DNA from: Bacteroidales bacterium
GTDB taxonomy: Bacteria > Bacteroidota > Bacteroidia > Bacteroidales > Tenuifilaceae
Assembly (NCBI GenBank): GCA_020636835.1
Contig: JACJXC010000007.1
Coordinates: forward strand, 281,229 to 345,228
DNA: 64,000 bases
Direction: 5' to 3'
Positions 42,233-46,581 of the stretch are shown one piece after another; position 1 is the stretch's first letter, and the number at the start of each line of letters is the position of its first letter. The translations under genes and the position numbers were made by a program. Below the pieces are notes generated by a model. It worked only from the letters and a program-made list of their open reading frames with translations. It was not told where the DNA came from and did no database searches.

Positions 42233-42407
42233 ACGGTCAAAACTTTTTTGAGAGATTCATAATCAAGGCATTAGTGCAGATTAATAAAAAGCCTGAATCA
42301 ACTATGAAACTTACAATTTATTTATTTTTCTCGACATACCGAGTTAATTTTTGCAATTTATGTTTGACCAAAAAGAATTAACTTTGCACCTCAAATTATC
42401 AAATAAG

Positions 42408-43937
42408 ATGAGTAACCGTAGAGTTAGAGTTCGTTTTGCCCCTAGTCCAACAGGGCCATTGCATATTGGCGGAGTTAGAACCGCACTTTTCAACTACTTT
42501 TTTGCCCGCAAGCATGCCGGCGATTTTATCCTCAGGATTGAGGATACCGACTCGCAGCGGTTTGTTCCTGGTGCCGAGGATTATATCAATGAGAGTTTAC
42601 GCTGGTGCGGTATTAAAATTGATGAAGGCGTTCGCGAGGGAGGCCCACATGCACCATACCGCCAAAGCGAGCGGAAACCAATTTATAAGCAGTATGCCGA
42701 TAAACTGGTGGAGAGTGGCAACGCGTACATTGCGTTCGATGCTCCCGATGTTTTGGATAAACTCCGTACCGATGCTGAGGCAAAAGGCGAAGTGTTTACC
42801 TACAACTACTCGGTTCGAGAAAAAATGGAAACCTCCCTGGTACTTTCGGCAAGCGAGGTTAAGCAACGTATTGAACGTGGCGACCAGTGGGTTGTACGTT
42901 TCAAAATGCCCGAAAACGAAGAGGTTGTAATGCAGGATTTAATTCGCGGCGAAGTTCGTGTAAACACATCAACACTCGACGATAAGGTGCTTTTTAAGAG
43001 CAGCGATATGCTCCCCACATACCATTTGGCGAACGTTACCGACGATTACCTGATGGAAATTTCGCACGTAATTCGTGGCGAGGAGTGGTTGCCTTCGTTA
43101 CCATTGCACGTGTTGCTTTACCGTGCCTTCGACTGGGAGGATAAAATGCCTGAGTTTGCACATCTTCCTTTGTTGCTTAAACCAACAGGAAACGGGAAAC
43201 TCAGCAAGCGCGATGGCGATAAAATGGGATTCCCCGTGTTTCCTCTGCTCTGGAAATCGGGCGAGGGTGAAATATCGAGGGGTTACCGCGAGGATGGATA
43301 TTTCCCCGAAGCTTTTGTCAACCTGCTTGCGCTTTTAGGCTGGAACCCCGGCACAGAGCAGGAATTGTTCTCGATGGATGAACTCATCAACCTGTTCAGC
43401 ATCGACCGTGTAAACAAATCGGGAGCACGGTTCGACCCTGAAAAAGCAAAATGGTTCAACCATCAGTACCTAATCCGCAAGAGCGAAACAGAGCTGGCCG
43501 AATTGTTCCAACCAATTCTTGAACAGTACAATTTCGATGTTCCTTTCGAGAAATTGGTTCGCATTGTTAGCCTGGTTAAGGAACGCCTAAACTTTGTTCA
43601 CGAAATTTGGGAGCAAACCAACTTCTTCTTTGAGCGTCCATTGCAATACGACCAGCAAGCCGTGGCAAAGTTCTGGAAAGAGGATACTGCTGAAATTATG
43701 AACGAAGTAGCCGAGGTAATAACTGGCATTGCGAAGTGGGATGTTGAAACCATTGAGCACTCAATTAAGGAGTTCATAAACGCAAAAGGTTACGGAATGG
43801 GTAAGGTAATGAACGCTGTAAGGCTTAGCCTTGTTGGCGCATCAAAAGGTCCAGGTGTTGCCGATATTTGCGAGGTGCTAGGAAAAGAGGAAACCATTCA
43901 GCGCTTTAAGCAGGCAGTTGCTATACTTGGGAAGTAA
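42408..43937 (+). CDS. gltX: Glutamate--tRNA ligase
   Basis: HIGH region [19 protein letters not shown]-like LSKR. Start [10 protein letters not shown] is an internal Met of the longer ORF. Confidence 0.95.
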
Positions 43938-43969
43938 GCGATATAAGCATTTGCTGGTGATATTACAAA

Positions 43970-44299
43970 ATGTTATATCTTTGTGATAATGATTGCAATA
44001 TGACAGAAACAACACAGACATTGAATTACTTAGGGGTTAACAAGGATAGGTTTCAGAAAGAATACCATTTGAAACGTATTGGAATATTTGGCTCATTTGC
44101 CAGAGGCGAACAAACCGAAAAAAGTGATATTGATATTCTGGTTGAATTTGAAGATGGTACCGACAATCTATTCGATTTAAAGCAAATGCTTAGAACCGAA
44201 ATTCAATCAATTTTCAGAGTGCCGGTTGATATCTGTCGAGAAAAATACATCAAGCCCTTTTTTAAAGACCAAATATTACGAGAAGTAAAATATGCATAA
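43970..44299 (+). CDS. Nucleotidyltransferase (Pol-beta superfamily, MntA-like)
   Basis: GIFGSFARGE…DIDILVEF motif. Low-GC gene. No HEPN/HepT partner ORF nearby. Confidence 0.75.
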   Translation: MLYLCDNDCNMTETTQTLNYLGVNKDRFQKEYHLKRIGIFGSFARGEQTEKSDIDILVEFEDGTDNLFDLKQMLRTEIQSIFRVPVDICREKYIKPFFKDQILREVKYA

Positions 44300-44342
44300 T
44301 ATTTCTCATAGAGACGTTGCCTGCCTATTAAGTATTCTCGAT

Positions 44343-44475
44343 TCAATGTCGTTTAGTTAAGCATATTTGTCATGTTGAGCGAAGCGAAACATCTTAAAAC
44401 ACTAAATAAATAGAGATCCTTCGCTTTGCTCAGGATGACAAATGGAGTGTTTGTTTTGTTAACTTAACGACATTG
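44343..44475. repeat. Nested palindromic MITE/REP-like element. Outer IR tcaatgtcgtttagttaa / ttaacttaacgacattga flanks two inverted copies of a TTGTCATnnTGAGCgAAGCGAAnnATC unit.
   Basis: Inverted repeats read directly in the sequence. The unit recurs at 45627-45656. Confidence 0.75.
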
Positions 44476-44530
44476 ATTCGCTAAACATTTTTAAACTTTT
44501 ACTGTTGATTTATTCATTACATTTGTAACG

Positions 44531-44617
44531 ATGAAAAGAATTCAAAACATAGTTTATTGCACCTGTTGTTGTCAAGGAAATACTTGGCCGCAAGGGGTAT
44601 TGCTATGTTTAGGATAA
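44531..44617 (+). CDS. Candidate Cys-codon-rich leader peptide (MKRIQNIVYCTCCCQGNTWPQGVLLCLG), 28 aa
   Basis: ATG…TAA ORF with 5 of 28 Cys codons and a C-T-C-C-C run. It lies between a TAcaTTTG -7-like promoter motif (44518-44525) and an intrinsic terminator, 20 nt upstream of cysE. Confidence 0.45.
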   Translation: MKRIQNIVYCTCCCQGNTWPQGVLLCLG

Positions 44618-44652
44618 ATCTATTGAATAGATACTAATACAATCAAACATAA

Positions 44653-44684
44653 CCCTTCCGGCCTCCGGAGGGGTTTTTTATTTT
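44653..44684 (+). terminator. Intrinsic terminator/attenuator hairpin cccttccgg…ccggagggg + T6AT4 immediately upstream of cysE
   Basis: GC-rich 8-9 bp stem plus T-tract. Its 5' arm (44653-44663) can alternatively pair with 44586-44597 (ggccgcaagggg), 10 bp with 1 mismatch. Confidence 0.7.
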
Positions 44685-44706
44685 ATCAATTTTAAATACA
44701 TGCGTT

Positions 44707-45480
44707 ATGAATTTTTTAAGATTTAGGAAAAAATACAACATAAAGGTTGACGTTGAGGAATTCACCCAACTTGTGCTAATGCATCTCTTCCCAGAGATGC
44801 TTAACCGACGAACGTTTAACGTTAATTCAAGCGAAGTTTACCGAGAACTTAACAAACTGCTTAAAAAACAGATTGGCGATAACTCAAAGGCAGATTTACT
44901 TGCAAAAGAATTTACTACAGAGCTACCATTGCTGCATAAAGCACTTATTGCCGATGCTAACTTTATCGCCAAAAACGATCCTGCTGCAAGTGGAATTGAC
45001 GAGGTGATTGTAACATATCCAGGATTTTCGGCAATTGGCACTTATCGATTGGCACACTATTTAGCCAATAAAGGTGTACCTTTAATCCCAAGAATTATGA
45101 CTGAGTGGGCACATTCCAAAACCGGTATCGATATTCACCCAAAAGCAACCATTGGAAAGGAGTTTTTCATAGACCACGGAACGGGCATCGTAATTGGCGA
45201 AACAGCCATAATTGGTAACAGGGTAAAAATCTACCAAGGCGTTACTATTGGCGCGCTAAGCGTAGGCAAGGAATTGGCTCAAACTAAACGCCATCCCACT
45301 ATTGAGGATGATGTAGTAATCTATGCCGGAAGTACAATTCTTGGTGGATATACAGTAATTGGGCGTAATAGCATTATTGGCGGCAACGTATGGCTCACAA
45401 AGAGCGTTGAACCAAACTCGTTGGTTTACCACGAAAGCAAAGTAATTGTTAGAGAACGTGAAACTGTAAACAAAGTATAA
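44707..45480 (+). CDS. cysE: Serine O-acetyltransferase
   Basis: Hexapeptide signature DIHPKATIGKEFFIDHGTGIVIGETAIIG…IYQGVTIG. Confidence 0.9.
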   Translation: MNFLRFRKKYNIKVDVEEFTQLVLMHLFPEMLNRRTFNVNSSEVYRELNKLLKKQIGDNSKADLLAKEFTTELPLLHKALIADANFIAKNDPAASGIDEVIVTYPGFSAIGTYRLAHYLANKGVPLIPRIMTEWAHSKTGIDIHPKATIGKEFFIDHGTGIVIGETAIIGNRVKIYQGVTIGALSVGKELAQTKRHPTIEDDVVIYAGSTILGGYTVIGRNSIIGGNVWLTKSVEPNSLVYHESKVIVRERETVNKV

Positions 45481-45589: not shown

Positions 45590-45660
45590 AGATGCTTCGA
45601 CAAGTTCAGCATGACAAGTAACAATGTGTTTTGTCATCCCGAGCGAAGCCGAGGGATCTA
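45590..45660. repeat. Two adjacent short repeats: an inverted copy of GTCATGCTGAACTTGTnnnAGCATCTC, and TTTGTCATCCCGAGCGAAGCCGAGGGATC
   Basis: The first matches 62073-62105 in the opposite orientation. The second matches the arms of the 44343-44475 element. Confidence 0.7.
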
Positions 45661-45672
45661 AAAACAAAAAAT

Positions 45673-46581
45673 ATGAAAGCACAAAGTTTACTGGAGACTG
45701 TTGGTAGAACACCACATATCCGACTCAACAAAATATTCCCTAACAACGAGGTTTGGATTAAGGATGAACGCAGAAATCCGTCGGGAAGCATTAAGGATAG
45801 AGCCGCTTTGGCAATGATAGAGGATGCTGAACAAAGCGGAATCTTAAAAAGCGGAAGTGTGATTGTGGAGCCCACATCGGGTAACACGGGTATTGGCTTG
45901 GCCATGATAGCGGCCATTAAGAATTACAGGCTGATTTTAACAATGCCCGAGTCGATGTCCATTGAGCGCCGACGATTGCTTAGCGCTTACGGCGCAGAAC
46001 TAGTTCTTACACCAAAAGCCGAAGGTATGAAGGGTGCGATTGCCAAGGCCGAGGAAATTGTTAATGCTACACCAAATGCTTGGATGCCGATGCAGTTCGC
46101 AAACCAATCGAACCCCAACACCCACTACGTAAACACGGCCAACGAAATTACAGCCGACTTCCCCAACGGAATTGACTACCTGGTTGTCGGTGTCGGAACA
46201 GGAGGCCATATCTCAGGAATAGGGAGTAAACTAAAAGAAGTTTTCCCTAATATAAAAATTATAGCAGTGGAACCATTGGATTCCCCAATGATATCGGAAG
46301 GAAAGGCTGGCCCACATCCAATACAAGGGATTGGTGCTGGGTTTATTCCACAAAACCTGAACAGGGATATTATTGATGAAGTGATTAAGGTTGAAGGTGC
46401 TGATGCCTTCGAAATGGTTAGGGAACTTGCAAAAACCGAAGGATTCCTTGCAGGAATATCAACCGGAGCAAACCTAGTAGCAGTAACCGAACTATTGGCA
46501 AGAATCGGCTCGGGGAAAAGAATCGTAACAGTTGCCTACGATTCGGCAGAACGGTACCTAAGTGTGGATGGGTTGTTTTAG
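45673..46581 (+). CDS. cysK: Cysteine synthase (O-acetylserine sulfhydrylase)
   Basis: PLP-Lys region SIKDRAA, and TSGNTGIGLA glycine loop. Start MKAQSLLETVGRTPHIRLN. Confidence 0.9.
   Translation: MKAQSLLETVGRTPHIRLNKIFPNNEVWIKDERRNPSGSIKDRAALAMIEDAEQSGILKSGSVIVEPTSGNTGIGLAMIAAIKNYRLILTMPESMSIERRRLLSAYGAELVLTPKAEGMKGAIAKAEEIVNATPNAWMPMQFANQSNPNTHYVNTANEITADFPNGIDYLVVGVGTGGHISGIGSKLKEVFPNIKIIAVEPLDSPMISEGKAGPHPIQGIGAGFIPQNLNRDIIDEVIKVEGADAFEMVRELAKTEGFLAGISTGANLVAVTELLARIGSGKRIVTVAYDSAERYLSVDGLF

Follow-up and report, generated by a model that had tools for sequence, protein, structure and literature searches.

A predicted leader-peptide attenuator keyed to cysteine codons upstream of cysE and cysK in a member of the Tenuifilaceae (Bacteroidales)

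The subject of this analysis is the region upstream of cysE in a 64-kb stretch of DNA (the window, to whose positions all coordinates refer) from a bacterium of the order Bacteroidales. Its nearest CysE relatives place it in the Tenuifilaceae (91% identity to the protein of a Tenuifilaceae metagenome-assembled genome and 82% to that of strain CYCD). Directly ahead of cysE, and on the same strand, lie a promoter box, a short open reading frame (ORF) that is rich in Cys codons, and an intrinsic terminator (Table 1). The cysE product is a hexapeptide-repeat acyltransferase that passes its NCBIfam equivalog cutoff and whose homologues are labelled serine O-acetyltransferase in the sources; the next gene, cysK, also lies above its equivalog cutoff, so that both gene names given in an earlier, sequence-only reading of this stretch can be kept. 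The genes downstream of the leader thus make the amino acid that the leader is proposed to sense. The mechanically called ORF of cysK opens at a TTG (45631) inside a repeat element; the in-frame ATG listed in Table 1 is likely the true start, since the 302 residues that follow from it fit homologues of 301-303 residues.

Table 1. Features of the cysE upstream region and its surroundings (window positions)
Feature	Position	Strand	Evidence and remarks
gltX	42351-43937	+	Upstream, same strand as cysE
MntA-like small nucleotidyltransferase	43970-44299	+	Sub-threshold NCBIfam match (50.2 bits, cutoff 60); supported by Pfam NTP_transf_2
Bacteroidota sigma-A -7 box, TACATTTG	44518-44525	+	TAnnTTTG motif; predicted transcription start ~44530, 1 nt before AUG
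Leader ORF, 28 codons and stop, MKRIQNIVYCTCCCQGNTWPQGVLLCLG	44531-44617	+	Translation; homologous ATG-started ORFs in relatives
Regulatory Cys-codon run, TGC ACC TGT TGT TGT (codons 10-14)	44558-44572	+	Proposed ribosome stall site
Region 1, 5' strand of 1:2 (anti-antiterminator) helix	44561-44576	+	Overlaps Cys codons; minimum free energy folds, RNAalifold consensus
Region 2, pairs with region 1 or region 3	44583-44598	+	Antiterminator 5' strand GGCCGCAAGGGG at 44586-44597
Region 3, terminator 5' arm AACCCTTCCGG and two loop bases	44651-44663	+	Loop bases also pair in antiterminator
Region 4, terminator 3' arm CCGGAGGGGTT	44665-44675	+	Consensus terminator scan
T-tract of intrinsic terminator, TTTTTTATTTT	44674-44684	+	
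cysE, serine O-acetyltransferase, EpsC type	44707-45480	+	NCBIfam NF041874, 157.9 bits (cutoff 150); proposed first regulated gene
cysK, cysteine synthase A	45673-46581	+	NCBIfam TIGR01139 equivalog, 413.5 bits (cutoff 351)

The leader ORF contains five Cys codons, four of them within five consecutive codons and the fifth at 44606-44608, just as the sequence-only reading had translated it. Cys makes up 18% of this peptide, compared with 0.7% of the residues in the long ORFs of the window. Three TGY triplets in succession occur nine times in the window, and the run in the leader is the sole intergenic one; the remaining eight, which were considered as additional Cys leaders and rejected, are all contained in long ORFs, either out of frame or on the opposite strand.

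The box upstream of the ORF conforms to the TAnnTTTG motif that spans positions -12 to -5, counted from the transcription start, in Bacteroidota (PMC9723704). No second such box occurs on the + strand from 44300 to 44720, and there is none between the terminator and cysE. (A scan for sigma-70 promoters returned counts equal to those in shuffled sequence, the model being uninformative for Bacteroidota.) In 13 loci, the window among them, an exact or one-mismatch box precedes the leader ATG by 4-6 nt. Because of this short distance the leader transcript is predicted to begin at the AUG or 1-2 nt before it and thus to be essentially leaderless, which adds to the earlier reading. There are two promoter-to-ORF geometries: in five other loci (L167, L081, L004, L148 and L035) the distance from box to ATG is 19-22 nt, leaving a short 5' untranslated region, as against the 4-6 nt of the family to which the window belongs.

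The leader ORF is followed by the intrinsic terminator, and only then by the first structural gene. A consensus scan gives it a stem of 11 pairs (44651-44675), seven of them G-C, a loop of 3 nt and the tail TTTTATTTTA; its energy is approximately -18 kcal/mol (ViennaRNA). Only 22 nt separate the end of the T-tract from the ATG of cysE (about 20 had been estimated, with the remark that an independent promoter would find no room there), and these last 22 nt are A/U-rich and unpaired in the fold. The leader segment as a whole (44526-44690) folds with -54.1 kcal/mol, at z = -5.9 relative to dinucleotide shuffles, and the minimum free energy (MFE) structure of the free leader consists of two helices, a 1:2 hairpin in which the Cys codons pair with region 2, and the 3:4 terminator. 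Region 2 can pair instead with the 5' arm and loop of the terminator. This 2:3 antiterminator, which the sequence-only reading had proposed as ten base pairs with one mismatch, comprises 5+5 bp (44586-44590 with 44659-44663, and 44592-44596 with 44653-44657) flanking a single C.C mismatch. The duplex has an energy of -19.5 kcal/mol, which none of 300 shuffled versions of the intervening segment equals. Duplex and terminator exclude each other.

To place the element in a comparative context, 160 loci encoding CysE relatives were collected from genomes and metagenomes, with 12 more added through protein search and contig look-ups. The metagenome matches listed are distant CysE relatives (61% identity or less), the closer ones coming from the protein search and the contig look-ups. 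A small ORF that opens with ATG and has at least three Cys in five codons stands no more than 400 nt ahead of cysE in 21 of 147 loci when the sense strand is read, and in none of the 147 when the antisense strand is read; applied to the other amino acids with two codons, the same definition picks out 0-8 loci. When only a CC dipeptide is asked for, the counts are 37/160 sense and 9/160 antisense. ORF and Cys run are retained in relatives whose CysE identity to the window ranges from 91% down to ~50%, and the complete layout (an ATG-started ORF of ~27-30 codons, the Cys run, a complement of the terminator 5' arm, the terminator) is found upstream of cysE in approximately 25 other loci, spanning Tenuifilaceae, other Bacteroidales and Flavobacterium. 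The earlier reading had pointed to orthologous upstream regions as the place to look for the ORF, its Cys run and compensatory changes in the helices, and the outcome of that comparison favours a Cys leader-peptide attenuator.

A tight family, with ATG-started ORFs of 27-30 codons, is made up of the window and loci L001, L161 (strain CYCD), L162, L163, L002, L164, L003, L005, L007, L016 and L014. More divergent versions occur at L165, L167/L081, L170 (Williamwhitmania), L171 and L004 (Perlabentimonas gracilis), and further ones in Flavobacterium (L067 and L068) and on several metagenome contigs. Terminators were detected in 28 of the 30 Cys-leader loci that were scanned, convincingly in approximately 20. 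When the 12 sequences of the tight family are used to build a covariance model, it also finds L167, L004, L081, L085, L165, L067, L170 and L134, with E values from 6.5e-9 to 5e-3 for these matches beyond the seeds, and every one of them lies directly upstream of cysE. The gene upstream of the leader is less constant. In the window and at L161, L163 and L170 this gene is gltX, and in the window and L162 a small nucleotidyltransferase/antitoxin gene intervenes between gltX and the leader; at L164, L165 and L167 its product is a transporter, peptidase or glycosyltransferase, and some of these genes are on the opposite strand. To judge by this distribution, the leader element travels with cysE, independently of the upstream gene. 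The downstream cysK does not discriminate between loci and was rejected for that purpose, the order cysE-cysK being common with and without a leader. Four close CysE relatives (L166, L168, L169 and L172) have no leader, so that the distribution is patchy.

Several loci present Cys-run ORFs of other construction upstream of cysE. In Melioribacter and relatives (Ignavibacteriota; L008, L019, L027 and L043) the Cys codons are located at the extreme end of the ORF. A canonical terminator/antiterminator was looked for at these four loci and none was detected; L019 and L027 have a short hairpin (GCUGA...UCAGC) that overlaps the stop codon. Leaders of this type may work by a simpler occlusion or translational mechanism. 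In L035 (Capnocytophaga), L095 and L146 a run of Met codons with two Cys codons (MMMCC or MMMTMCC) is followed by a terminator; the arrangement might serve to sense both sulfur amino acids, or the ATG run might supply alternative starts. The ORFs of L074 (Proteiniphilum; 152-193) and L087 (1012-1176) end in 5-6 consecutive Cys codons (MNRKRMHTCCCCC and ...SCCCCCCTPCC, respectively), and the terminator scan gave nothing convincing at either of them.

The 12 sequences of the tight family align with a mean identity of 68%. Invariant columns are concentrated in the start codon, in regions 2 (CCGCA..GG), 3 (CCC.T.CGG) and 4, in the T-tract and in the Cys run, whose TGTTGTTGT core shows a single substitution (in L163) and is otherwise constant; gaps as far as the end of region 2 are multiples of 3 nt. 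The helices 1:2 and 3:4 are paired in 91.6% of cells, against 44-61% in slid controls, and five of their pairs have changed on both sides; none of 500 shuffles reaches either the observed pairing or the covariation score. Taken singly, the 1:2 helix is 89.8% paired with three pairs changed on both sides, and the 3:4 helix formed with region 4 is 93.9% paired with two. RNAalifold recovers both helices unguided. The 2:3 antiterminator is paired in 91.7% of cells, against 25-58% in slid controls, and its outer pairs change from G-C in the clade of the window to A-U/U-A in the clade of L003. Region 2 always reads CCG...GGG, even though these are minor codons (CCG accounts for 13% of Pro codons and GGG for 19% of Gly codons). 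A synonymous change in region 2 (CAA/CAG) retains an A-U or G-U pair, and in L002 and L164 a Gly-to-Arg change leaves the pairing intact.

Matching of region 2 to the terminator extends to lineages in which the terminator itself is unrelated in sequence. In these a segment 10-25 nt past the Cys run matches the local terminator 5' arm (GACUCUUCAA in Flavobacterium, AAUGCUCCUCAAA in L148, AGCUCAUCC in L013), and the match usually surpasses almost all of 300 shuffles; different terminators with a matching region 2 are found in L067/L068, L148, L013, L134 and L167. Region 2 and terminator were also compared crosswise between lineages in a 15 x 15 matrix, where a terminator's own region 2 ranks between first and fourth of 15 in 14 of the 15 cases. 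The mutual exclusion of terminator and antiterminator is accordingly indicated by duplex energy, by pairing across the 12 sequences and by this lineage-specific matching.

Folding with a ribosome placed on the leader bears on the 1:2 helix, which contains the regulatory codons and which is already indicated by the MFE fold, the RNAalifold consensus and the compensatory changes. When the footprint covers the Cys run and the 3' arm of the terminator is not yet made, the MFE structure contains the 2:3 pairing in all eight of the loci first tested, and in 21 of 22 loci the terminator 5' arm has 7.1-12.1 expected pairs with upstream RNA. For the window this expectation is 0.2 pairs with no ribosome, 8.5 with one stalled on the Cys codons and 2.2 with one that has reached the stop codon. 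The last of these placements gives a clean result for the window and inconsistent ones in relatives, and it is not used as support for the replete state.

Taken together, these features make it very probable that cysE-cysK are controlled by transcription attenuation of the ribosome-mediated, leader-peptide kind, with charged tRNA-Cys as the signal that is sensed. The proposed sequence of events is as follows. Transcription would start near 44530 from the TACATTTG box and yield an essentially leaderless mRNA, whose 5' AUG would open the 28-codon ORF. Codons 10-14 (UGC ACC UGU UGU UGU) would lie within region 1, which can pair with region 2 (GGCCGCAAGGGG); the alternative partner of region 2 would be region 3 (CCCUUCCGG plus loop bases), the 5' arm of the strong 3:4 terminator. 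With ample Cys-tRNA the ribosome would pass the Cys run, the local 1:2 hairpin would form, 3:4 would follow and transcription would terminate at approximately 44680-44685. A leader that is not translated would likewise form 1:2 and 3:4 and terminate. With Cys-tRNA scarce, the ribosome would stall on the Cys run and mask region 1, and region 2 would capture region 3 as it emerged; with 2:3 formed there would be no terminator, and RNA polymerase would read through into cysE and cysK. Because the leader stop codon lies 18 nt beyond region 2, the outcome in the replete state is probably set by 1:2 forming again once the ribosome has moved past, not by a ribosome positioned over region 2. Attenuation resembling that of trpL and hisL had been put forward in the sequence-only reading and gains comparative support here; what that reading had missed is the 1:2 helix, formed by the Cys codons and the antiterminator strand. 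Since the leader is conserved in many Bacteroidota, control of the cysteine-synthesis genes by shortage of cysteine is very likely.

Several points weigh against this interpretation. In several relatives, L163, L003, L167 and L170 among them, the truncated transcript goes on favouring 2:3 whether the ribosome is placed at the stop codon or left out. Equilibrium folding thus fails to separate the states there, and the outcome in the replete state would have to depend on co-transcriptional kinetics. In the full-length leader at equilibrium, moreover, even a stalled ribosome leaves the terminator as the favoured fold, which implies that the switch must be kinetic. The same is true of classical attenuators, in which the terminator is also favoured in the full-length leader at equilibrium and of which the trp switch is kinetic. 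Covariation within 2:3 is weak: 36 of 500 shuffles reach its score, the control falling short of significance because six of the ten pairs never vary, and the case for 2:3 is built instead on the slid controls, the shuffles of the intervening segment and the cross-lineage matrix. The alignment of 12 sequences holds essentially two clades and therefore samples few independent events. That transcription starts near 44530, that the ORF is translated and that termination occurs is in each case a prediction from sequence, and stalling, kinetics and the response to cysteine belong to the model. Efficient translation of a leaderless ORF is likewise an assumption, since leaderless mRNAs are uncommon in Bacteroidota, where they constitute 3.7-5.5% of mRNAs (PMC9723704, among other sources).

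What doubt remains about the attenuator reading concerns chiefly the level at which the output is exerted. Stalling on Cys codons could be the sensor while the output is initiation of cysE translation, mRNA stability or Rho-dependent termination, the hairpin then having mainly a structural or stabilising part. The mycobacterial polycysteine small ORFs, which act translationally, offer a precedent. The Cys-run loci at which no convincing terminator or antiterminator was seen (L008, L019, L027, L043, L074 and L087) and the incomplete separation of regulatory states by equilibrium folding in several relatives are in keeping with such a mode. We nevertheless regard it as quite unlikely for the window. 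There, and in approximately 20 relatives, a canonical G+C-rich hairpin is directly followed by a T-tract, and region 2 is matched to the terminator 5' arm across lineages of differing sequence, as a terminator/antiterminator switch requires. Bacteroidota, moreover, make little use of Shine-Dalgarno sequences, whose absence has been noted (PMC9723704), so that cysE should have none to sequester.

Still less probable, in our judgement decidedly so, is that the leader ORF encodes a functional Cys-rich micropeptide (for instance with a metal or redox role), or that the terminated RNA of ~150 nt is a trans-acting small RNA, with cysE expressed by constitutive read-through. The leader element does have a promoter box and a terminator of its own, and rnTrpL and peTrpL of Sinorhizobium are examples of an attenuator RNA and a leader peptide that can act in trans. 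The leader peptides of different lineages, however, are unrelated outside the Cys run, and searches with six of them against Pfam-A and NCBIfam disclosed no family. Within the tight family it is RNA pairing that conservation tracks and not amino acid sequence, as the fixed CCG and GGG codons and the tolerated Gly-to-Arg change of L002/L164 attest. Any role in trans would in any event come in addition to attenuation, not as a substitute for it. The remaining possibility, a chance ORF beside the terminator of the upstream gltX and mntA genes and a cysE gene with its own unrecognised promoter, might appeal to the same-strand orientation of those genes and to the nine TGY runs of the window, but it is effectively refuted by comparative data, since ORF, Cys run, promoter box and terminator are kept in loci with different or divergent upstream genes, sense outnumbers antisense by 21 to 0, and the short gap between T-tract and cysE contains no -7 box.

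The surroundings of the element call for brief comment. The MntA-like gene resembles the antitoxin genes of the MntA family (type VII toxin-antitoxin), and no gene for a HepT toxin partner adjoins it. L162 has both MntA-like and HepT genes at the corresponding site; in the window the position of HepT is taken by a palindromic element. This imperfect long palindrome (44339-44480), which resembles repetitive extragenic palindromes or miniature inverted-repeat transposable elements, consists of nested inverted repeats (44339-44360 with 44459-44480, and 44365-44394 with 44414-44443). It separates the MntA-like gene from the leader promoter and may insulate that promoter from transcription of gltX and mntA. 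Sub-threshold Rfam matches to plant microRNA precursor families at 44322-44498 reflect the long palindromic repeat and were dismissed as spurious. A second copy of the repeat core (GTCATnnnGAGCGAAGC...) occupies 45590-45660 in the spacer between cysE and cysK, with its core GTCATCCCGAGCGAAGCCGAGGGATC at 45633-45658. The copy lengthens this spacer to 192 nt; in relatives the arrangement ranges from overlapping genes to a separation of up to ~100 nt. No + strand terminator is predicted in the spacer, and co-transcription of cysE and cysK is on that account likely, though not certain.

The general plan is that of the enterobacterial attenuators (trpL, hisL, pheL, thrL, leuL and ilvL): a short ORF with a run of codons for the end product, four regions that pair as 1:2, 2:3 and 3:4 with the regulatory codons inside region 1, and an intrinsic terminator immediately ahead of the first structural gene. 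The window element differs in being keyed to Cys, in belonging to Bacteroidota, and in a leader ORF that is predicted to start 0-2 nt from the 5' end of the transcript, without a Shine-Dalgarno sequence. It also differs from trp in its replete state, which would rely on 1:2 re-forming, whereas in trp the ribosome covers region 2. In Proteobacteria, where cys genes are under the control of CysB, we know of no classical Cys attenuator. The T-box of Bacillus cysE-cysS senses charging of tRNA-Cys by way of a terminator/antiterminator switch, and does so by binding uncharged tRNA with no ORF involved. It thus has control of cysE, the sensing of tRNA-Cys charging and the kind of switch in common with the window element, which uses an ORF instead; the Rfam scan gave no T-box match in the leader region.

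That scan (Rfam 15, 43900-45000, E of 10 or less) yielded sub-threshold matches only, among them Phe_leader at 21 bits (gathering threshold 55), which covers the terminator part alone, and trpB at 23 bits (threshold 59). The Bacteroid-trp RNA motif (RF01692), which occurs in Bacteroidota (Weinberg et al. 2010, PMC2864571), and an Ile-rich leader peptide predicted for ilvE of Flavobacterium psychrophilum (PMC9723704) are, like the window element, cis-acting leaders of the attenuation type that precede amino acid operons in this phylum. They respond to Trp and to branched-chain amino acids, respectively; the window element is keyed to Cys. Neither RF01692 nor any other Rfam 15 family matches the leader region at threshold, and the supplements of the F. 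psychrophilum study (PMC9723704) list no Cys leader.

Runs of Cys codons in leader peptides have precedents outside the phylum. In Actinobacteria they have been predicted upstream of cys operons, without terminators (Seliverstov et al. 2005, PMC1262725), and in Mycobacterium smegmatis leaderless, cysteine-responsive translational attenuators have been demonstrated experimentally (Canestrari et al. 2020, bioRxiv 10.1101/834739). These small ORFs share with the window leader consecutive Cys codons, a location ahead of cysteine-metabolism operons and ribosome stalling as the proposed sensor of Cys-tRNA. They are also leaderless, as the window leader is predicted to be from motif evidence, namely the box-to-ATG spacing in 13 loci. 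The mycobacterial element, in contrast, unmasks a Shine-Dalgarno site and has no conserved terminator hairpin, whereas the window element has a conserved strong terminator with a matched antiterminator; it comes from a different phylum, and the two are not related in sequence. The window element consequently does not fit the mycobacterial type, that is, sequestration of the ribosome-binding site without a terminator: its terminator is conserved and the 22 nt that precede cysE are unpaired. In Deinococcus deserti a leaderless leader peptide with two Cys codons lies upstream of cysS, and transcription attenuation is proposed for it (PMC4007540). The Cys mini-ORF on a leaderless transcript (predicted in the window) and the proposed attenuation are what it shares with the window element, and it differs in having two Cys codons, in preceding a tRNA synthetase gene and not biosynthesis genes, and in its phylum.

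The author of the sequence-only reading was not aware of a Cys leader-peptide attenuator in this phylum. Our literature search, outside which much subscription literature lies, likewise found no description of a Cys leader with a terminator upstream of cysE in Bacteroidota, and the statement is to be qualified by the Cys-run leaders of Actinobacteria and Deinococcus. We lean, by a modest degree, to a broader proposition: that Cys-codon leader attenuators, often leaderless, are a widespread and uncatalogued element that serves as the main switch of cysE-cysK in many Bacteroidota; that they are the first classical terminator/antiterminator attenuators keyed to Cys; and that they are accompanied by differently built leaders with Cys or Met-and-Cys runs in Flavobacteriales and Ignavibacteriota. 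If this is correct, the latter would speak for repeated independent invention.

The mechanism is textbook; novelty lies in the amino acid that is sensed, in the phylum and in the leaderless start that is predicted, and the gain is one of breadth and annotation, not of principle. Classical attenuation would be extended to an amino acid for which the previous examples are translational or are actinobacterial ones that lack a terminator. The element also suggests that leaderless translation, rare in Bacteroidota, is put to use there for a regulatory ORF. The covariance model, together with the signature of -7 box, ATG, Cys run and a region 2 matched to the terminator, can be used to annotate Cys leaders in genomes, and the same approach could reveal other operons under similar control. 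For the Bacteroidota, which include major gut and environmental lineages and in which the control of cysteine and sulfur assimilation is poorly understood, the leader would provide a concrete cis-regulatory mechanism for cysE-cysK.

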